A stretch of DNA of 64,000 bases from Gekko japonicus (lineage: Eukaryota). Made by a program: the position numbers and the translations under genes. The stretch spans positions 445,542-509,541 of the forward strand of contig NW_015172592.1 in assembly GCF_001447785.1 (NCBI RefSeq). The letters are read 5' to 3'. Below the pieces are notes generated by a model that searched no databases, was not told the origin of the DNA, and was given only the letters and a program-made list of their open reading frames with translations. Within the stretch, counting starts at the first letter, position 1. Every line of letters begins with the position of its first letter. Positions 2,932-56,980 of the stretch are shown here, piece by piece.

Positions 2932-3267
<336 letters not shown>

Positions 3268-9335: not shown

Positions 9336-10677
9336 CAAGGGTTTCAAACATGCGGCCCATAGGCCAGATCAGGCCCTCGGAAGGCCCCTATCCAGCCTGC
9401 AAGGAACTGGCTATTTCCTTCTTTCTCAGTTCTCCTGCTGCGGTGCAGCTTGCTTTACCAGATGTTCTCAGTCACACAGAAGAGACAGGCAAGCTTCTGT
9501 TTCCTACAATGGCTGAGGCATCTCCACCTCCTCCTCCCAGGGGGTGGGAGGGAATGAGCCAGAGCTTGCTTCCTGGCCAGGCTGATTCAATTGCACAGGA
9601 GATATTGGCTGATGATCCTCCCCTTCCTCCTGCCTTGCTTTGCTCAGCTGCCTCAATTGCATGGGAGAAATACAAAGCACCTTTAAGACCAACAAAGTTT
9701 TATCAAGGTATGAGCTTTTGTGTGCCTTGCTACAGTGTTTTGTTGGGCTCGTTATGCCAGGTCTCCTGGGTGCAACTGGGTCCCCCTCAATGCATAAATT
9801 AGTTTGCTCTGGAGCCATCCTTCCTGCACGAAGACAAAACTGTGTGAGCTGGAGGCTAAAAAAACTGTTAGCTTGCTCACACTAACTCAGCTTAGAGAGA
9901 ACACTTGTCCCCCTCCTCTTTTTCACAGTATTCATGCCTTCATGATCCAGTCTTTCTCAGCAGAAAAGCAATGTGAACTATTTAGATGAGGAATAACAAT
10001 AAGCCAGTGAGGTAGATTAGGCTAAGAGTGTGTGTCCAGACAAAGTTCACCGAGCACACTTCCTTGGTAGATTTTGAACCTAGACTTCCCAGACAGCAAG
10101 CTGACACTGACTATACATTGCTGTCTCTCTATTCTTACATTGCCTCATAGGAGTTGTAGTTATTTCTCTGGGGAAGACTATAGTTTTGTAAACAAACACA
10201 TAGCCCTCCAGCTGTCAGGATGCTTTCTCATGTTCTTGACCAGCACACAAAGCAATTTATTTACAAAACCTCGAAATGCCCAGCCATTTCATGTTTTTTC
10301 CCTGGATCCTAGGCTCAGAACACTCAACATGAAATTTCTGTAATGAATGTCAATAAATCAAAAGTAGTTTTCCAGCTCACAGATACACACCTGAACAGCA
10401 TATTCAAGATTGCCAGAGCACAGATATTTTAATGTAATAATTCAGAGAAAGAGCTGTCAATTACCAAAGACTGTTAAATAAACAAAATATTGTGAGAGTG
10501 TTTTAAGCATATTTTATTTAAAGTTAAAAAAAATCTTTAATTGTGTTTGTGAGCTTTATAACGTTTATATCTCCGCTACCTGGCATTACGTTTTATGACA
10601 AACATGGCCCAGTCCAACAAGGTCTCAGAGGTCTCATTTATGTCTGGCTCTCACAACAAATGAGTGTGATACTCCTG
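9336..10677. mobile_element. hAT-Charlie-like non-autonomous element with nested SINE and MITE fragments
   Basis: Ends CAAGGGTTTCAAACATGCGGCCC and GAGTGTGATACTCCTG; 8-bp TSD ATTTAAAA at 9328-9335 and 10678-10685; interrupts the 3' tail of the L2 element. Confidence 0.8.
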
Positions 10678-10685
10678 ATTTAAAA

Positions 10686-12530
10686 GATTTAAACGTAATA
10701 TAATAAGAGATTAAAATTTACATCCATATACAAATCACAAAATGGCGATAATACACTTAAAGTGCTCTCAGAAAGTTTTGACCCTTGTATGTGTGCTCAT
10801 ATATACTGAAATTCCCTCTGCTCAGTACATAAAAAGTACCTTGTGAGTGGCACAGGTGAATAGAATAGGTGGGGGGGAGGGTTAATTTAATATGGTGTCT
10901 GCCGCCTCAACCAAAGGCCTGGAGGAACAGCTCTGTTTTACAGACCCTGACAAATGTTTATAAATCCCACAGGGCCCTGATCTCAATTGGGAGACTGTTC
11001 GACCAGACCGGAGCCAGAGCCTCTGGTCGAGGCTAAGCAGACATCCCTCCGGCTGGGAATCACCAGTGGACATCCCTTGAGCCAGGGATCTGAAGAACAC
11101 AGAGTTCTTTGGGGGACATAGCAGTTGAGACAGTCCTGCAGATAAGATGGTCCCAGACTGCACAGGGCTTTAAAGGTTAATACCAGAATCTTGAACTTGA
11201 TCTGGTACTCAACTGGAAGCCAATGCAGCTAGCAGAGCACAGGAGGTCTATGTGCTTGTCCTGAGGTCCCAGTAAGGACATGTGCAGCTGCATTTTGAAC
11301 CAGCCAGAGTGTCCGAATCAGTCTCAAGGGTAACCCTGCATACAGCGAGTTACAGTTGTCCAGCCTGGAGGTGACCAATGCATACAATGCATGGATCACT
11401 TTGGCTAGGTCAAGGGGGAGAGATGGGGGCCAATTGCCTGACCTGCCAATGGTAAAAGGCTGATCTGGCAACAATCATGACCTGGGCCTCCACAAATGTT
11501 TATAAATCCCACAGGGCCCTGATCTCAATTGGGAGACTGTTCCACCAGACTGGAGCCAGAGCCTCTGGTCGAGGCTAAGCAGACATCCCTCCGGCTGGGG
11601 ATCACCAGTGGACATCCCTTGGGCCAGGGATCTGAAGAACACAAAGTTCTTTGGGGGACATAGCGGTTGAGACAGTCCTGCAGATAAGATGGTCCCAGAC
11701 TGCACAGGGCTTTAAAGGTTAATACCAGAATCTTGAACTTGATCTGGTACTCAACTGGAAGCCAATGCAGCTAGCAGAGCACAGGAGGTCTATGTGCTTG
11801 TCCTGAGGTCCTAGTAAGGACATGTGCAGCTGCCAGCCAGAGTGTCCGAATCAGTCTCAAGGGTAACCCTGCATACAGCGAGTTACAGTTGTCCAGCCTG
11901 GAGGTGACCAATGCATGGATCACTTTGGCTAAGTCACGGGAAAGAGATGGGGGCTAATTGCCTGACCTGCCAATGGTAAAAGGCTGATCTGGCAACAAAT
12001 GACCTGGGCCTCCACTGAAACTGAGGCATCCATTGTCACACCCAGACTCCTCAGCATTGACACTGGCGCTAGCAGCGCCTCATCAAAGGTGGGGAGCCAG
12101 ATCCCTGGTCCCACCCACCCCCAGCTCAGGCACAGGACCTCCATCTTAGATGGATTTAATTTCAGTTGATTCTGTTTCAGCCAATCAGCCACGGCCTCCA
12201 GTGTCCTAGCCAGAACCTCTGGGGAGGTATCTCGGTGGCCATCCATCAACAGATATAGCTCGGTGTCATCAGTGTGCTGATGACAACCCAGCCCAAACCT
12301 CCAGACCAGCTGGGCAAGAGGGCGCATGTGGATGTTAAATAACATAGGGCAGAGAATCGCTCCTTGGGAGACGCCAATACCAGTGGCTAACATGGTGAAA
12401 CCCTCTGCCCAAGTGCCACTCTCTGTCCTCTGTCTTGGAGAAAAGAGATAAGCCATTGAAGGCAGTCTCTCGTATCTCCATGCTGGCGAGGTGGTGGGTC
12501 AAAAGATCGTAATCAACCATGGCAAACACT
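10686..12530 (-). mobile_element. L2-clade LINE, RT and 3' region (decayed), with an internal 542-bp tandem duplication
   Basis: GVSQGAILCPMLFNIHMRPL...HTDDTELYL (YADD-like), WLKQNQLKLNPSKMEVL, ALVTSRLDNCNSLYAGLP...VQNAAAHVLTG; 10950-11491 is repeated at 11492-12013; the tail continues at about 9257-9335. Confidence 0.9.
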
Positions 12531-13977: not shown

Positions 13978-15652
13978 TTTTTAAATTTTAATTATATTTT
14001 ATTGACTATATATTTCATATTTCATAAAAGTATTTCATACCCTTATATATTTCATTATTACAACAAAAAATGAGGTTACATTTCATCTGTATAACCAAAC
14101 AAGTAAACTTAATCCAAATCCCGATTGTATCCTCTTCTTTTTCTTATTCTCTTATCCTACTCGCCTAGTTCCATGAATCTATCTATTCCCCCTTTAAAGC
14201 TGTTTATTCCTGTGGTCATCACGACATCCTTCTCGCAGCGGATTCCATATTTTAATCACTCTCTGTGTAAAGAAGTATTTCCTTCTGTCTGTCCTGAACC
14301 TCCTGCCCATCAGCTTCACTGTCCCACCAAAATCCTCAGCTCTCAGCTGAAAGCAAGTAAAAAACCACTCACCTCCTGCTCAGAGCTCAGCTGGGTCTTG
14401 GGGGGGGAGGACTTGGGGGGGAGCACACCCTCCACCTACTTACCATGCCCTCTAGCTATAACAATTCAACTTCTATATTGTTTATCACTTTGTGTACTAT
14501 TACTGAATAGTTGCCACTTAATATATAGTTCTAAATTCCCTTCTTATACTCATTTAATTGCTCTCAACATGATCTATTACACTGTTTGCCTAAACAAACT
14601 ATCTCCTTTCAAACGCCTCCATCTGTTTGTTTAATCACTGCTTCCAATAGCTTCTTCCCAGTATTCTCATTGTGTGCTGTGAAAGTTTTGTCATATACGT
14701 TGACCACTACGTGGCCTAGTGCAAGCCATCTGTATTGAATTCCATGTTCTCTCAGTGTCTTTGCTGTATCTCGAAGCTTCTTTCTCGCGAGAAGTATCTC
14801 AGCTGGGACATCAGCAAATAGAAAAACAATCATGTCTTCAAGGCACAGACCCTCTTTTTCTCTCGCAATTTTAAAAAGTTTATTTTTGATCTGTACTTCT
14901 GTGAATTCAATCAGGATATCTGGTGTGGCATCTTCAGAAGCTCTTTTCGACACGTTTAAACAGGTGATCATTCTTTCGGAAGTCTCTGATTCCCCTGCTG
15001 AGTGAAGTATCTGCCACAGCCATTTATTTAAAGATGCAGCGAAATCTTCTGTTTTGGAAAAGTTTAATGAGACCCCAGGAAAAGTTTAATGAGATCCCAT
15101 GGAGTTTGGCCTTCCTTTCTCTTGATTTTATTTTTGGCCCAAGCCTCAAAATCCTTTACCTCCTTCATTTCGTCTGCTGTTTCCTTCGCACTCTGGTATG
15201 CTTCAGCTTTCTTCTCCATTGTCCTCATTGTTGTGGTGAGTTCATCGAGTTTCTTATTTATCAGCTCTATTGTTTGTTTAGAGCTGGCCAATTTCTTTTT
15301 TCAATTGTCTGACATCCCTGCTCACAATCTTTATTTCATTTTTAAGTTCATCTTTTATCTCTGTCAAAGCATGCAGAATCATGGTCTAGTAACTTGGGTC
15401 AGAATTGCTTCCTCCCATCGCCATGTCCTCTGGCAGAAATGTCTCTTGGTCTTCCGAGTCTGTATTACTCTTCCTAGGGGATCTGTAGGGGGGGTTGCCC
15501 CCTTCTTCCCCATGGTCCTTCCCATACCCAGCATTAAAGTTTGTTTCTAAATTAGTTTTATTTTTTGAGAGCAATTTTGATATTCCTCAGTGGGATTAGC
15601 AGGAGTGTGAGAGGGATGCAGTCAGCCAGAAGCTCAGCCGCCATGCCCCTTT
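13978..15652 (-). mobile_element. ORF1-only L1-derived retroposon (HAL1-like), decayed
   Basis: 5' end AAAGGGGCATGGCGG; frameshifted coiled-coil, RRM and CTD pieces of L1 ORF1p (PDILIEF...FLFADVPAEILLARKKL...LREHGIQYRW); 3' UTR, AATAAA and A-rich tail; TSD CACTAAATATA (13967-13977) / CACTACATATA (15653-15663); no ORF2. Confidence 0.75.
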
Positions 15653-41835: not shown

Positions 41836-43460
41836 GGGGACTTCTGGCCTGGAGTGCTGAGGAGAACCCCCTCTGAGGCAATGGCCAAGGAATTGGGGCC
41901 CTCCTTGGTCCAAGAGGCCTTGCCACCGTGAAGCCATCATGGCAACTAGAGCTGGCTACTGGAGGAAGCAGACAAGCGATCCAGTGTGAATGAGCTCCTA
42001 TAGTAACTTAAAGGTGATAAAACTGAGTTAATCGATCCCCTCTACAAGCGGCTGAGCCTTTAAGGTGAACAGCAGCAATTCATGAGATAAGCGGTGAGCA
42101 GGGATCCCCCCCACGAAATTAAATGGTTCCTGGACGATAAACTGAGAGGGAAAAAGCGAAACTGACCATGACAGACAGCAAATGAGACTGAAAGGTGCAA
42201 AACAGTCCAAAACATTTTCAAATCAGAGAACTTTCAGTTTAACTTTAAAAACTTTCTCCTTGTGTAAACAATGTCTGGTAGAGAGAGAAGAATGGCACCA
42301 GAAAAGAAGCCTCTCACAGGAAATAATCAACCAGCGACTCCTTCACAGACATAGGAAGCAGCTGCTGACTTTCCTAATATGCTGGCACTGGCATTGTGCC
42401 CTCTGCTGGAACAGATGTCAAATATCAACAGCAAGCTGGATGGAGTCCAAAAGCAATTGACACGGATGGATAAAAGAGCAGATACTGAGAAAGCCATTAA
42501 GAAAGTTGAGATAAAAACAAAAGATAGTAAACTGGAAGGAGTGGAAAAAGAAGTGGAAAAACTGTTGCAGCTTCAAATGGAAAGATCAATGTATGTCTTG
42601 CGCTTTCAAGGCATTGCAGAAAAAAAGGAGAAAATTTAAAAGAACTTTAAAGCGAAGTATTAGCACCAATGACAGAACTTAAGATGTACTGCAAAATGAT
42701 ATGGATCTGACATATTGGAACTACTCAGATTTCATCAAGAGAAATATGCTACCTGGTGAAGTATTTGTGAAATAGTGAGATCCACTAGAGAAGCTGTTTT
42801 GAAAGCTACATCTGGGAAAACCTTGAAAGTAAAAGATGAAGAAGTGAAAAGGATATTCCATTTGAGGTGTAGAAGTGAAGGCGGCAATACAAAGACTTAA
42901 CTTTCTTCCTTCATAATAATTCAATTTCATACAGATGGACATTTCCAGAAGGACTTGTGTTCAACTATAAAGATAAGACCAAGATTGACTCTGTTCAGAA
43001 AGCCAAAAAAGTTTTGGATCAGCAACAAAACCCGAGCAAAGATGAAAGGAAGACTGAGGACAACAATGAAGAAGATGATAGAAGTGACTGTGAATCTGAA
43101 GATATGTCAAGTAGCTCTGACAGTACCTCTGAGGTTTCGGATTCGGAAAAAGGAACAGCTGCTCCCAAACCACTTAAAGTTAAACTGAAATACAAGAAGA
43201 AAAAGCATGGAAAATAAACTGGAAGTTCAATAGAACATAATTGACTATAAAACACCTATAGATTTGTATTGAAGACTCAAGCCAGCTTTATCTAGAAATC
43301 AATACCTTGACATAGTACCTTTGTTATTATTGTAGGTCCGATATATAAGAATGTAATTTCTGAAATACGATCCTTGTCTTAATTTAGTTTCTGTATTAGT
43401 TTTAGAGCTTCCTTTACCCCTTTCCCTTAGGATATAGTATATAAAAGCAATAAAAAAATT
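41836..43460 (+). mobile_element. Second ORF1-only L1-derived retroposon (HAL1-like), decayed
   Basis: 5' GGGGACTTCTGG; ORF1 pieces from about 42292: coiled coil, MERSMYVLRFQGIAEKKE (RRM entry), SYRWTFPEGLVFNYKD...DSVQKAKKVL (CTD), then acidic/basic tail ending at 43217; about 240-nt UTR and AATAAAAAAA at about 43449; no ORF2; TSD not resolved. Confidence 0.72.
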
Positions 43461-50783: not shown

Positions 50784-51572
50784 GATATGGCTGTGTGATC
50801 GTGCCTGTTTAATCCGTTTGTAAAATGTGCCTGGTTTGGGTCAAACTGCCAGTCTGAACACAACCAGTGATGGGCTGCACCCGCATCTATAAAGGGAAGT
50901 GTGATCTCGCAACTGTGTGTCAAATTCCTCCAGAGGGAATAGCCTCACTTCCCCTCTGCTTCGACTGGCGCGTGTGACCGCAGCCTCAGACTAGTTAAAA
51001 TATGGGCCAGTTTCTGATTGTAGTAAACTAAGGAAGACGTCTACGAAGTGGATGTTCTCTGCTTGGTCCTCAGAAACAGAGCTACCACACAAACACAAAG
51101 CACACTGTGACAAGTTCAGGACCCCAGAAAATCATGGATGACAAGAAACAAATTAAAACGTCAACTTCTGCCAACTCAAAGAATTAAATGTGGTGGCAGC
51201 AAGCTATTACTAAATTCATTTGAAAGTGTATTTCTCAGGCTTAAAATATTTGGCAACTTGAAGTTCCGTATACGCTCATTCAACACAATATAAGACTCAC
51301 AACAACATATACCTGTGTGTGATGAAAAGGGAAAGAAAAGGTAAGCCACATGACATCTGTGAAATTCTGTCATTCTGTGTTGAGAACTCATCATATTTAA
51401 GAGAAAAAGAAATGGGTAATCACACCAAAACCGTTCTTCAACACCGTTTATACAAGAGAGCTTTCCAAACAGATACAGAAAGCCCCTCATTGTCTGTTTA
51501 TGTGATAGACATACATACCAAACCAGTGGCACCTTTAAGACAACAAAGTTTTATTCAAGGTATGAGCTTTCG

Positions 51573-53776
51573 AGGGACTTCCGGTACGGCGTTTCGACGG
51601 ACGGGGGGAGCGAGACGAGCTCCGTCCCCACCCGAACTGTTCCCGTTTTTTTTTGAGCCCCCCGAGGCTCGGGGGAGCTTGACCATCCCCCCGAAGGGGG
51701 GGATGGAGCAGGGGGCGTCTTTTTGGCCCTTTCCCGCAATCGGCAGGGCGGGGGAGGTGTCCGAAACAGCCCCGAGGCTGAAGCGGGCAGCAGGGAACAT
51801 GGCCGCCATGTTCCGGAGAAACAACCATCCGCGTTTTTTTAATCTTTCCTATCGTTTAAATTTGGATTATAAAAGGCAGCAACGAAGAAAAAAATAGAAA
51901 GCATACCTATCTTCAAGAGGAAAGAAAAGAATCCCCGAATTGGCTTGGCATGAATTGGAAAGCGGCCGGTAAAGAGACTTGGCTAAGTATCTATAAACTT
52001 TTACTTTTGGTAGTGCGGGGAAAAGATACGGAGCTCTGGGGACAGGACTGTTAAGATTGGTCTTACAAAATATAAAAAAATGGCTGGAATAAGGGAAGAG
52101 GGACTGATTGAATTGTCTAGAGAAATGATGGAACAATTCTTTAAGGCAATGGTAGAAAAAATTCAGGAGGGCATTAAAGAAGGATTTAAAGCAGCAGCTG
52201 AAACCTCTCAAGGACCTTTTAAGCCTCCAGAGAATACTGAGACGGTGGAAGTATACAGTCAGAATCAGGAGAACAAGGAACAGATAACAGAAGTTGAATG
52301 GAAAACGGAGAACATGGAGTTAACAAATATTTTGGAAAACAAGGAACAGATAACAGAAGTTGAATGGAAAACGGAGAACATGGAGTTAACAAATATTTTG
52401 GAACGGAAACAAAATAAAGAAACAAAGAAGGGAAATGTCGGGAAGAGAAAAAAGTTAAAAAGAGAAAGAAAGAGAGGCAGAATGAAGAGAAAATGGAGAA
52501 TGAGGCGAATTGTGTGTAAGAGACTAAGCATCAGGAGACAAGCAGTTTCAGAAAATATAGAGAAGAGACTGGGAAAAAACCATCATGTATGCAAAGGGAG
52601 AGAACATGTGGACAGGTTACTGTGGCTAGAGTTATTAATGATATATAGAAGGCAATACAAGTTAAATGATATTGTATAATGATGCCTAAGAAATGTCTGA
52701 TCTGTAATAAAAGAGAGTAGGTTCTAGAACTTAGGAATGAAGTATAGATAAGTGCTGATAATGGTGCCTAAGAAATGTCTGATCTGTAACAAAAGATAGT
52801 AGGTGCTAGAACTTAGGAATGAGGTATAGATAAATGCTGAGATGGAAAATTTAATTTTCAGAAATAAAAACCTAGATGTAGGTATTAAGGACTTTAAGGT
52901 GAGGGTAAGGAAAACTGATAGAAATTTAAAAGAAACCAGTTTATCAATGATTGTCTACATTGTGTTATATCGTGTTTATATGGAGATCTAAAAATGAATT
53001 ATTATAAGCAAAGAGAAGGAATTTAACTATTGTTTAAAGATTTATAATCTGATGCAATGATATAAAGAAATTTAAATAATATGAGTGGAAAAAGGTCTGT
53101 GATGGAAACTACATGATCCTATAAACAAGTGTTTAGGTTTTGATTGACAAAATGAATTAATATAAGTTTAAGAAGAAGATATGTCTGATAATATAAGTAT
53201 CATTTAATATTTGGTGGTGTTTGAAAAGGAAATGAATTAAGTGTTTATGTTTTGATTGATAAAATGAACGTTTGATACTATCAGCATTATTTATTATTTA
53301 GGTGTGTTTAAAAGGAAATGAATTAAAATATATTAATTATAATGGGTGTGTATAACAACTATGTAGACTAGAGTAAAATTTTGGAATAGGTGTTAAATGG
53401 GAGGTGTAAAGTTTGAAAGTACGAAATGTGGTTAGGAAGATAAATGAAAATAATAGACAGAAATTTATTTATTTAGTTACTCAATTTTCTCCTTCTAGAG
53501 CTATTTATATTTTGTTGTTAAATGAACTGAGCTAAATGCTACAAATAGGACAGAAATGGATTCTCATCTTTATAAGAAGTTAGAGGTCTATCCCGAAAGG
53601 AGCAAGAAAGATAATTATATTTAGTATAAATATTGGATGCTGGTAATCTTGGAAGAAAATGTGTATGTTGCTGTCTTGAAGCAATTATGTATAAGTGGCA
53701 ATGGTGTGGTGTTGTAGGTGGTGGGTATTTGTCTGTTTAAAAAACCCAATAAAAATATTTACAAAAAAAAAAAAAA
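51573..53776 (+). mobile_element. Young non-autonomous poly(A) retroposon (L1/Tx1-mobilised type) with a single 199-aa ORF
   Basis: Perfect 16-bp TSD AAGGTATGAGCTTTCG (51557-51572, 53777-53792); CpG-rich 5' UTR starting AGGGACTTCCGG; ORF 52080-52679; about 1.1-kb AT-rich 3' UTR; AATAAA at 53748 and poly(A). Confidence 0.9.
52080..52679 (+). CDS. Element-encoded 199-aa protein (helical/acidic N-half, 22-aa duplication, very basic C-half); possibly a reduced ORF1p
   Basis: Uninterrupted ATG ORF in good Kozak context (AAAATGG) after the 5' UTR; exact 66-bp frame-preserving duplication; no recognisable RRM, EN or RT motif. Translation unproven. Confidence 0.45.
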   Translation: MAGIREEGLIELSREMMEQFFKAMVEKIQEGIKEGFKAAAETSQGPFKPPENTETVEVYSQNQENKEQITEVEWKTENMELTNILENKEQITEVEWKTENMELTNILERKQNKETKKGNVGKRKKLKRERKRGRMKRKWRMRRIVCKRLSIRRQAVSENIEKRLGKNHHVCKGREHVDRLLWLELLMIYRRQYKLNDIV

Positions 53777-55254
53777 AAGGTATGAGCTTTCGTGTGCACA
53801 CACAATTCTTTAGATACAATGAAATGGAAACAGACCAACACGGCAAACTAAAGATGGCTCTAAAATGCTGGGAAAGCAACAGGCACCTCTTCCTCCTTCA
53901 CAAGTCAGTCTCGTCTAGCATGTCTTGAAGTAACTGTATTACAGCATTTTATAAGATGCCAGCTTATAAACAAACCAAGAGTAATAGCTATGGAATGTGC
54001 CAAAAATGAGAACACGAAAAGTGAAAGCGCCAAGTGACCTTTCTGCCACATCTTGTGCATGTTTTTCCTCATGTGCAGAGACTGCAGCCCTGTGGTCTTC
54101 CTGGTATTGGCATGTACAACTCACAGTTCAAGAATCTGCTGCACATTCTTTTATAAAATTTCCCATCCACCCAAACATATATCCATCTTGTTTAAAATGA
54201 CACTGAGTCAGAGCCAAAGTTTGCTTTAGCTGGATGTCAGGAACAGGTCTATGCCGGGATTTAATTTGTGGATGAAGACTACCCTTTTTAAAAACTGGAT
54301 TATTTCTTTTAATCAGCCTTGATGGACTATTTGGTTGTATGTAGAAAAGAGGTGATGGCATGCAAATCAGCAGAAAAGAGTGCTGCTAAGGACAGGAAAG
54401 AACTCACCCAGGTCCCCCCCTTCTTATTTAATGAGAGCTGCTTCTGAGTAAAGAGTAATATCCCAGGCTACTTTCCCCGATCCCTGGATCTTACCAAGTT
54501 TTTGTTCTGTCCCAGAAATGAAATATGGAGTAGGAAGAGCACCAGAAATGAAGTTATCTGCTAAGCAGAGCAGAGCAAAGTCATATGAAATAAAAAGATT
54601 TTTTTGTCTGTCTGGGTTTTTTTTTTTTTAAAGACCAGGGCATATATTTTTCTTGTTCTCCTAAGGAATGCATGAGTTACTCGTGCAGCAGCCAGCTAAT
54701 TATGAAGCTCACAAGCTACCTGTTGGAAACCCTTGCCATAACATGTACATAACTCTCCCCAAACCTTATACTCATTCCTATGCAAAAGCCTGTGTACAGC
54801 TTGCAGTATAAGTTGATTGCCTTTGCATTTGTACTTCTTTAGATGTAGCTAATGGGGGTGTGGTGGGGAGTAAAGATGAATTTTAGGATAAAATAAGTTG
54901 GAAACCAACAAAGACCTGTGGGGAGCTTCTCATTTCACCCTCTCTCACTCTTCCTTCTTTCCCTTCCCTGGCAACCCCCATAGGTTCCCCCCTTTGCTTG
55001 CTTGTTTTTTTCCTTCCCACACACCAACTGACTTTTATCTACCCCTCTATCTTTAGTTTTTCCTCTTTCCCATCCCCTGGCACTCTCTCCCTGGGAAAAC
55101 TATAGCCAAGTTTCACAGTGACAGATAGACCTGCAATGACTCACTTTCCTCTGTATCAGCTCCCCACACCTCTGTATCACCTCCCCATCCTTCCCTATTC
55201 CTGGCAACCCCCATATCCTCAAGAGAAAATAATAGGACAGTATCAGTTGCTATG

Positions 55255-56980
55255 TAGGGATTTTCCACTTTTTGACTTCGTACAATGGCTCAATTCAGTC
55301 CATCCTACTATAAGGTTTTCTTATCAGAGTAGTCATAATAGTATTGATTTTCTTGATACTACAGTTTTTGTTTCAGAGAAGGGTACTTTAGCTGTTAAAC
55401 CATTTTCCAAGAAAACAGATAAGAATACTTATCTCCATTACCAGTCCCATCATGTTAGACACATATGTGAAAACTTGCCTTATGGGCAGTATTTGAGGGC
55501 CAAAAGAAATACAACATTGTATGAACATTATGAGATGGAATCTTCTAAATTATCTTTACAATTGAAAGAGAGAAGGTACCCCAGTAGAATCATCCAACGT
55601 GCAGTAAGTAGAGCCAACAGTGTGGCCAGGTTGGATCTCTTTAAACAGACAGAGCATAGTGCACCATTATGTTCTTTTTCATGTGCCTTTGATTTTACTC
55701 CACTGGCTTCCCAAATTAAAAATACAATATTGAAACACTGGAATATTGTGGAGGGTATTTCGGGCTGTCAACATCAGCCCCCCATAGGATTTAGAAGAAC
55801 TAAGAATGTTCATGATTTAATGGTACACTTTGACTTAGAGCAGGCAATTCTAATACTACAACACCTAGTGACCATTTTCCATGCGACAGGTGTTCCGTAT
55901 GTTCAATGGTATGGCAAACAAATAAGATTAAGATCCTGAGTAGGGACTTTATATATGAGATTAGATTTTTCTCTTCATGTTACACCAGAAGGGTAATTTT
56001 TCTCCTAAAATGTGTTTGCCAATCCTTGTATGTGGGAATCTCAACAAGAACCATTAGAGCCCGTATTATTGAACATAGGTCTTGTATTAGAAATTTACAT
56101 TCAGAATCTTGACTCAGCATTTTATTGAAAAACAGCATTTCCCTGATGCTTTTCAGTTTGTAATTTTGGAGGTCTTAAAGACACACCCATATTCATATAG
56201 ATGTACAGAGAAATTTGAGACAACGAGAAGCGTATTGGATATTTCATCTCAAAACATATTGTCCTTATGGCCTCAACCAGTCATTGGAATTTAGTAGCTA
56301 CTTATGAATAGCAATATGGTTTAGTTTTTGTCCTTTACCACTTTAAGAACCTGAAAGCTATGATACCAAACACATGTCCCTTCTTGTTATATGTAGCTTG
56401 TAAGTGTAGGTGGAATTCAGAGGCTTACTGACAATGTAAGAAAGTTTTCTACTGATGATCGGTTGCCCTGCTTAAACTAGTTTTATGTGAATTGTGGTAA
56501 GCATTTTGTCCTTTTATAACATCTGTCTATAACATGTTTTTAAATTTTACAAAGGTATTATGAGAGCAACTTTGTTGTATTTTGTTATAGGATATTTTCC
56601 CCTGAATAATAACATGAAGGCTTCTGTATATTGAGCACTAGATGAAGGTAAATATTGTGAACTTATAAATTCTATATGACTGTGTTGTAAATATTAGTAT
56701 TAATTGCCGGGCTGATTATTATTGTAGCTATATGGTACAACTGAAGAAGTATCAACGAAACGAAGACTGGAATCTGGAGTCTTTGTCCATGTCCTTTGTG
56801 CCAGCTTCCTGTATACACTCTGTGTTGTTGTATGTTATTTGTATACACTATATTGTAGCTGTTTGTACACATTTTGTTTTGTATAAATATTTTTTCACTT
56901 CAGTATAATGCCCTGGATTGTGTTATGTATATAGTGCTTTTTTGGTTTATGTATATTATACTGTGTTATCACTTTTGTAT
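55255..56980 (+). mobile_element. Penelope-like element (Neptune type), 5'-truncated: RT thumb, Cys knuckle, GIY-YIG endonuclease, 3' region
   Basis: LNSVHPTIRF...IDFLDTTV...KKTDKNTYLHYQSHH...LPYGQYLRAKR; frameshift into FPCDRCSVCS; VIFLLKCVCQSLYVGISTRTIRARIIEH (GIY-YIG); hammerhead-like motif downstream. Confidence 0.92.
56731..56795 (+). ncRNA. Type I hammerhead ribozyme-like motif (stem I degenerate)
   Basis: CTGAAGA (56741), 2-bp stem II GT-ATCA-AC, GAAA (56757-56760), 9-bp stem III (56760-56768 with 56778-56786), GTC triplet ending at 56787. Confidence 0.6.

Follow-up and report, generated by a model that had tools for sequence, protein, structure and literature searches.

Several described elements depend on the machinery of LINE-1 (L1). 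SINEs, SVA and processed pseudogenes borrow this machinery via a poly(A) tail (PMC2666806, PMC3747384) and keep no selected protein of their own. HAL1 of mammals is a non-autonomous element with a single long-kept ORF, no ORF2, L1-type TSDs and a poly(A) tail (PMC5753468, PMC3627910); its ORF1 encodes a recognisable ORF1p and has been kept for tens of Myr (PMC3627910). Since Pol II transcripts require ORF1p plus ORF2p for retrotransposition (PMC2666806) and the L1 proteins favour their own RNA (PMC3747384), a Pol II-transcribed parasite gains from an RNA-binding partner of its own, a benefit that has been proposed for HAL1 (PMC3627910). Residues on which L1 mobility depends, those for RNA binding and chaperone activity, lie in the RRM and the CTD of ORF1p (PMC6428221).

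The family analyzed here is represented by a 2,204-bp copy in a 64,000-nucleotide stretch of Gekko japonicus contig NW_015172592.1, the whole of which is referred to as the window. Like HAL1 it is non-autonomous, with a single long-kept ORF, no ORF2, L1-type TSDs and a poly(A) tail. With high confidence it is mobilised by L1 and equipped with a selected protein, and the protein sets it apart from SINEs, SVA and processed pseudogenes. Its host is a gecko rather than a mammal, and in its protein of ~200 aa neither an RRM nor a long coiled coil is detectable. Although the family behaves as HAL1 does, it is not classed as HAL1, since no RRM could be recognised and homology to ORF1p is unproven. 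With lizard LINE-1 clade 1, described from the anole (PMC5381506), and with the L1s of its own genome the family shares the GACTTCCGG 5' terminus, a CpG-rich conserved head, an A-rich sense strand, the AATAAA-poly(A) end and the T(C/T)|AAAA target; it differs from L1 in having no ORF2, in a length of ~2.2 kb versus ~6 kb and in UTR sharing that is limited to terminal motifs. HAL1-type (ORF1-only) elements of the same genome have the same terminus, a 5' UTR of about 500 nt, one ORF, a length of 1-2 kb and TSDs; unlike the family, they encode an ORF1p that comprises coiled coil, RRM and CTD or is clipped, and that an ORF1p profile finds. A SINE-type head (tRNA, 7SL, 5S, snRNA) was searched for in Rfam, and the three matches in the element (E 0.04-0.52) all lie under the gathering score. 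No description of such a family was found in the literature covered, which excludes most subscription papers and Repbase Reports.

The copy in the window and its surroundings

The copy consists of the following parts, given in window coordinates:

51573..53776, + strand: full-length non-autonomous retroposon copy, 2,204 bp
51557..51572, + strand: left TSD, 16 bp, cut site TTC|AAGG of L1-endonuclease type
53777..53792, + strand: right TSD, 16 bp, 100% identical to the left TSD
51523..51556, no strand assigned: left half of a high-copy short repeat, split by the element and resuming past 53792
51574..51585, + strand: 5' terminus GGGACTTCCGGT, resembling anole L1 clade-1, zebrafish L1 and same-genome HAL1-type termini
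51591..51822, + strand: head rich in CpG and conserved across the three clades; covarying RNA secondary structure; putative internal Pol II promoter
51683..51706, + strand: best-supported hairpin, 7 of 10 pairs altered on both sides, 92% of cells paired
51703..51897, + strand: 64-aa upstream ORF within the 5' UTR
51795..51812, + strand: palindromic AACATGGCCGCCATGTT block, conserved, with little covariation in its core
52080..52679, + strand: main ORF, 199 aa, under purifying selection
52107..52205, + strand: conserved N-terminal helix, residues 10-42, EQF..EGI..G motif, dN/dS 0.24
52268..52399, + strand: 66-bp in-frame tandem duplication, acidic linker, missing from 29 other aligned ORFs
52404..52574, + strand: Lys/Arg-rich region, 27 of 57 residues, whose composition suggests nucleic-acid binding
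52536..52667, + strand: conserved C-terminal segment, K..R.H motif, dN/dS 0.31, weak likeness to the ORF1p CTD
52676..52839, + strand: 82-bp tandem duplication at the ORF/3' UTR boundary, 93% identical
52680..53747, + strand: AT-rich 3' UTR with a terminal GT-rich stretch and AAAAAACCC, L1-like terminal layout
53748..53776, + strand: AATAAA (53748-53753) and poly(A) (53763-53776, 14 A)

An earlier note, made from the letters of this stretch, had described the copy as a young retroposon without reverse transcriptase, and most of its anatomy is confirmed. The perfect TSD (AAGGTATGAGCTTTCG), the single intact ORF, the Arg/Lys-rich half (27 K+R among residues 109-165), the AT-rich UTR with its duplication of about 82 bp, the AATAAA and the clean poly(A) are all present as claimed. 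The 507-nt 5' UTR, which had been called uneroded and CpG-rich, has a CpG observed/expected ratio of 0.97 versus 0.25 across the window, and the two motifs named there were located (ACTTCCGG at 51577-51584, ATGGCCGCCAT at 51799-51809); the AACATGGCCGCCATGTT block is one that we take to be YY1-like. Only the word 'exact' fails for the 66-bp duplication, which is in frame and 98% identical, with one mismatch.

The insertion lies within a high-copy short repeat (51523-51572 and 53793-53830, and also 9677-9718) that reaches thousands-fold the flank depth in reads. Its other copies hold the target motif once, so the TSD of the window copy is not a chance repetition. No contig bridging the 5' junction was obtained from two DNA runs, and such a hole proves nothing on polymorphism. 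A ROR-type Ig-domain exon, presumably of ROR2, lies on the minus strand near 3000-3250, and the element is thus antisense to a ROR-type gene; the proposed orientation of its promoter, antisense to ROR2, is borne out to this extent.

Other features of the window include two decayed ORF1-only elements, one at 41836-43460 (+), likewise starting GGGGACTTCTGG and carrying remnants of the ORF1p RRM and CTD, and one at about 14000-15650 (-) with an ORF1p-like frame. A 277-aa open frame at 55106-55936 (+) presumably resembles a Penelope-type RT/GIY-YIG region, and a tandem duplication of about 540 bp with 94% identity occupies 10950-12015.

A multicopy family with a conserved open reading frame

The genome contains hundreds of copies of 2-2.5 kb, and this figure, like all copy counts given here, is a lower bound. 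A DNA search of the 2.49-Gb genome returned at least 84 matches (40 of 529 candidates scored), a protein search at least 144 (150 of 669 candidates scored), and four distant family queries 91, 136, 89 and 86, in partly overlapping lists. Three clades are joined by profile comparison, namely the window clade, a second one with a C-segment probability of 69% and a third with 97.7%; the same 260-nt head is common to all three. No EN or RT is encoded in any family copy examined, and gecko L1 ORF2p used as a tblastn query has zero matches within the window element, in agreement with the earlier claim.

The hallmarks of target-primed reverse transcription noted for the single copy extend across the family. 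Copies start GGACTTCCGG, as lizard L1s do, and finish with AATAAA-poly(A); TSDs, mostly of 12-20 bp, were detected at 51 of 109 loci, with a median element length of 2.19 kb (among these rows, L078 is a false TSD and L032 and L033 include extra flank). Across the 51 TSD loci, position -2 of the cut site is T 35 times and position -1 is T or C 40 times; position +1 is A 34 times and position +2 is A 38 times. The resulting target, T(C/T)|AAAA, is of L1 type, and full-length L1s of the same genome have like sites.

The ORF of ~200 aa stays open across lineages that share only 15-50% identity, and its layout comprises a helix, then an acidic linker, a basic region and the conserved K..R.H segment. 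Among 38 intact ORFs (37 of 72 loci plus the window copy, with ORFs containing N-runs, stops or shifted ends excluded) the median pairwise dN/dS is 0.36 (676 of 703 pairs), a descriptive value given that intact ORFs were preselected and that the pairs share ancestry and are not independent. The two conserved segments have lower dN/dS values, the N-terminal helix 0.24 and the C-terminal segment 0.31. For the five remaining frames the values are 0.84, 0.87, 1.07, 0.56 and 0.97, with 4-14 stops per sequence, the value of 0.56 belonging to an antisense frame with shared codon positions. In 21 copies picked by DNA similarity, 21 of 31 indels in the ORF are multiples of three, versus 11 of 69 in the 5' UTR, some events being counted more than once in this tally. 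Since the frame stays open in divergent lineages and its dN/dS of 0.36 compares with 0.56-1.07 elsewhere, the protein is under purifying selection, and the check proposed earlier, of dN/dS and ORF retention among copies, comes out in favor of a maintained ORF. Much of the ORF is of low complexity and tolerates large in-frame duplications; lineages L054, L062, L110 and L241 carry duplications of 40-50 residues of the basic/C-terminal module.

The age of the family and that of the window copy have to be distinguished. In head and ORF, identity to the nearest assembled siblings of full length is 93-94% (dS 0.14-0.21), so that the window copy has no near-clone among these siblings. One 229-bp 3' piece, 98% identical to it, adjoins an assembly gap, and two other DNA runs contain pieces with 0-4 differences at ~3-4x flank depth, once 7x. 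These reads suggest that a few near-identical siblings exist, the read depth giving no copy number. In a tree of 47 ORFs (midpoint root) the window copy is the tip of a ladder, and five Gekko kuhli proteins occupy five separate places. As judged from these sequences, the family is an old one whose branches go deep and include lineages that Gekko kuhli has as well, and the subfamily of the window copy looks recent; the description 'young' thus holds for the copy and its subfamily and not for the family. Some lineages whose ORFs are 66-70% identical to that of the window copy have tails 86-90% identical to its tail, while others at equal ORF distance have tails of 60-79% identity, a pattern which suggests that ends were exchanged between lineages. 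An apparent swap of this kind between ORF lineages is seen in the 3' tails of L047, L051, L055 and L057 compared with window 53640-53753. Raw RNA reads from three runs (3-12% of each run covered) cover the ORF at a depth of up to ~10, are mostly 90-99% alike and show opposite strand biases over the ORF in two runs, so that these traces speak for the family level only.

The structured head and the ties to L1

The first 278 nt of the window copy fold at a z of -4.1, and 16 of 20 family heads reach z values below -2. In an alignment of 40 of the 66 non-redundant heads, a structure of 45 pairs is paired to 90.4%, and 30 of its pairs change on both sides; none of 500 shuffles reaches this and slid controls reach 45-51%, although the structure is partly derived from the same alignment and the sequences are related, which inflates this comparison with controls. 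Clear compensating pairs occur at columns 139-155 (15 A-U, 15 C-G) and 140-154 (15 C-G, 13 U-A). The 5' 230 nt form a covarying RNA structure. The idea that such a head is unique to the family was rejected, as z is likewise below -2 for 9 of 11 HAL1-type heads and for 2 of 4 heads of L1s; the structure is a trait common to these elements and not a family mark. For the first 260 nt of these HAL1-type elements and L1s (L320-L333, L113 and L121), z goes down to -6.8 against shuffles, and among 10 HAL1-type heads both sides vary in 25 of 60 predicted pairs. As full-length copies share one start, the head is likely an internal Pol II promoter.

The family 5' terminus matches those of the anole L1 clade-1 consensus (GACTTCCGGTG) and of zebrafish L1 (GGACTTCCGGTT) (PMC5381506). 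Among the first 30 G(G/A)GGACTTCCGG sites in the genome, 13 precede an ORF1p match and 5 precede a member of the family's superfamily; the former include ORF1-only elements bounded by TSDs and a single L1 that has an endonuclease frame. The 12-nt terminus itself is not enriched genome-wide (746 occurrences versus 993 for a reversed control). When the anole L1 consensus pattern was tried as an L1 finder, it gave four matches, two of which are family members and none shown to be L1. On a matrix built from family tails, 11 of 11 L1 tails (about 4 distinct) rank in the top 1-4% of 2,118 AATAAA contexts. One L1 of the genome has an open ORF2 of 1,249 aa. Family heads and HAL1-type heads are alike over the first 20-60 nt only. 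Four TSD-bounded elements of 0.7-1.9 kb (L327, L331, L332, L325) have the same 5' terminus with ORF1 whole, clipped or absent, and at their 3' ends AATAAA and poly(A) are separated by a hairpin-like motif of a C-run and a G-run.

The site of insertion, the 5' terminus and the tail, compared with L1s alone, point to mobilisation by L1 rather than Tx1; of the 'L1/Tx1 machinery' that the earlier note had suggested as host of the parasite, it is the L1 part that stands. The search for an autonomous partner came out negative, as among 45 L1 loci none shares a 5' or 3' UTR with the family, bar one chimera. In this locus, L058, the first 205 nt are shared with the element and are followed by a complete L1 5' end; it was rejected as a partner and is regarded as a single chimera because the genome contains this junction a single time, at the very point where sister L1s begin. 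In the chimera (L058/L070, 620-4400), which would stem from a template switch or a nested insertion, the L1 part breaks off after the endonuclease.

Origin and role of the protein

Direct searches agree with the earlier statement that no ORF1 RRM or CTD is recognisable. Pfam returned no credible family for sets of 1, 5, 30 and 28 family proteins, a PDB sequence search with three family profiles reached best E values of 0.056-0.44 of compositional origin, and Foldseek with a low-confidence model gave no match at E 0.001. Two AlphaFold models consist of helix and coil, with no beta strands (pTM 0.24 and 0.27). The RRM search was blank in Pfam, PDB and both models, while the control search finds human ORF1p; the region compared with the CTD is predicted as helix and not as the alpha/beta CTD fold, and, as regards a coiled coil, conservation is limited to an N-terminal helix of 27-40 residues. 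Three copies of this helix, predicted as a complex without alignment, scored 0.21 where the mark is 0.32, a result that speaks neither for nor against a trimer. Among 1.84 billion representatives a profile search yielded 11 proteins; the 10 looked up, and one more from a word-indexed search, are Gekko kuhli hypothetical proteins scattered over several lineages, and no host parent gene is among these homologues. Word-indexed searches, a weak method for remote relatives, returned two and one matches, all from Gekko kuhli, and none among longer proteins. In the Gekko kuhli gene model P0006 the family N-terminus is fused to unrelated host-like sequence, presumably reelin-like, by mis-prediction or exonisation.

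Profile comparisons with ORF1p leave weak traces. The C-segment matches the ORF1p CTD with a score of 16.8 (P 0.007), higher than every one of 59 column shuffles and of 35 ORF2 windows, and that of clade 2 picks the same CTD register (P 0.002), while clade 3 has no match (P 0.33). The N-helix picks the ORF1p N-terminus (P 0.03-0.05) in an order collinear with the CTD match. These P values of 0.002-0.05 fall within the range of chance matches, ORF2 windows match or exceed the N-helix scores, and in a control the N-helix matched an RT motif by chance with a score of 23.4 (P 0.0001). The best hhalign probability is 4.5% at full length and 5-16% for the C-segment (1-16% overall). A true gecko ORF1p profile recovers human ORF1p at E 1.4e-6, and the three family profiles have no match to it at E 10. 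Two further ideas were dropped: the N-helix as a piece of ORF2 reduces to a four-residue chance word in the RT motif, and the C-segment as the second half of the RRM, an idea formed by eye, is unsupported in profile comparison. Taken with the L1-type 5' terminus and tail, the weak collinear N-helix and CTD traces leave a link to ORF1p unproven yet plausible, and moderately favored. The earlier contrast with HAL1-like elements holds for the unrecognisable RRM and CTD, and the family may all the same not be independent of HAL1.

The reading preferred here, with a little better than even confidence, is that of an old, multi-lineage gecko retroposon which is copied by L1 ORF2p and whose own protein is a much-reduced stand-in for ORF1p that packages its RNA in cis. 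Transcription by Pol II would start in the CpG-rich head, the ORF would be translated, and the basic half of the protein would bind the element's own mRNA; L1 ORF2p would then nick T(C/T)|AAAA and prime on the poly(A) tail. The ancestor would have been an L1 or HAL1 element in whose ORF1p the coiled coil and the RRM were lost, while the N-terminal helix and a CTD-derived end were kept. Three observations speak against a protein unrelated to ORF1p, captured or arisen de novo behind an L1-derived or convergent promoter end, with the packaging or helper role gained separately: HAL1-type elements of the same genome have the same layout, with a UTR of about 500 nt, one ORF and L1-type ends; two clades independently pick the CTD register; and the match of the N-helix to the ORF1p N-terminus keeps the expected order. 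This alternative, equally dependent on L1, fits the blank Pfam, PDB and fold searches, the models devoid of beta strands, the clade 3 C-segment without CTD similarity and the lack of homologues beyond Gekko among the 1.84 billion representatives; no host gene source was found for it either, and it is considered possible if doubtful. Somewhat less probable still is the proposal of an undescribed class of vertebrate L1 parasites, whose own non-ORF1p protein recognises the structured 5' RNA and brings it to L1 ORF2p, and which outlasted many gecko L1 families as parallel lineages swapping heads and tails.

The fast divergence of the protein, the ladder-like succession up to the window copy, heads and tails that are more alike than ORFs between some lineages, and the compensatory changes in the head would also suit a factor of counter-defence or competition, such as one that protects the RNA against silencing or diverts ORF2p from L1 RNA, perhaps via the structured head. 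Since defective copies would profit too from a benefit in trans, such a benefit would be harder to keep selected, and HAL1-type and L1 heads fold strongly as well, so that such a role is held to be improbable. Tolerance of large in-frame duplications in a largely low-complexity ORF might indicate that the act of translation alone matters, through ribosome contact or escape from decay, with an incidental protein sequence; the dN/dS of the two terminal segments and motif residues that persist at 15-25% overall identity leave this only a slim chance. Processed pseudogenes or retrogenes of one host gene, which a single ORF, a poly(A) tail and a TSD could also imply, are scarcely credible given that many lineages coexist, that in each of them young copies are nearly identical and the 5' terminus is constant, and that no parent gene is among the homologues; a single-copy processed pseudogene, named earlier as the outcome that would overturn the retroposon claim, is likewise at odds with a multicopy family and a selected ORF.

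A long-mobile family with a 200-aa protein that lacks a recognisable RRM represents a natural minimal version, which makes it testable what the function of the first ORF requires and bears on why Pol II retro-transcripts need ORF1p. If the protein proves unrelated to ORF1p, it would represent cargo of a novel type for an L1 parasite. For genome annotation it matters that the copies are numerous and are annotated as hypothetical host genes, as were all ten looked up, and that they can enter gene models.
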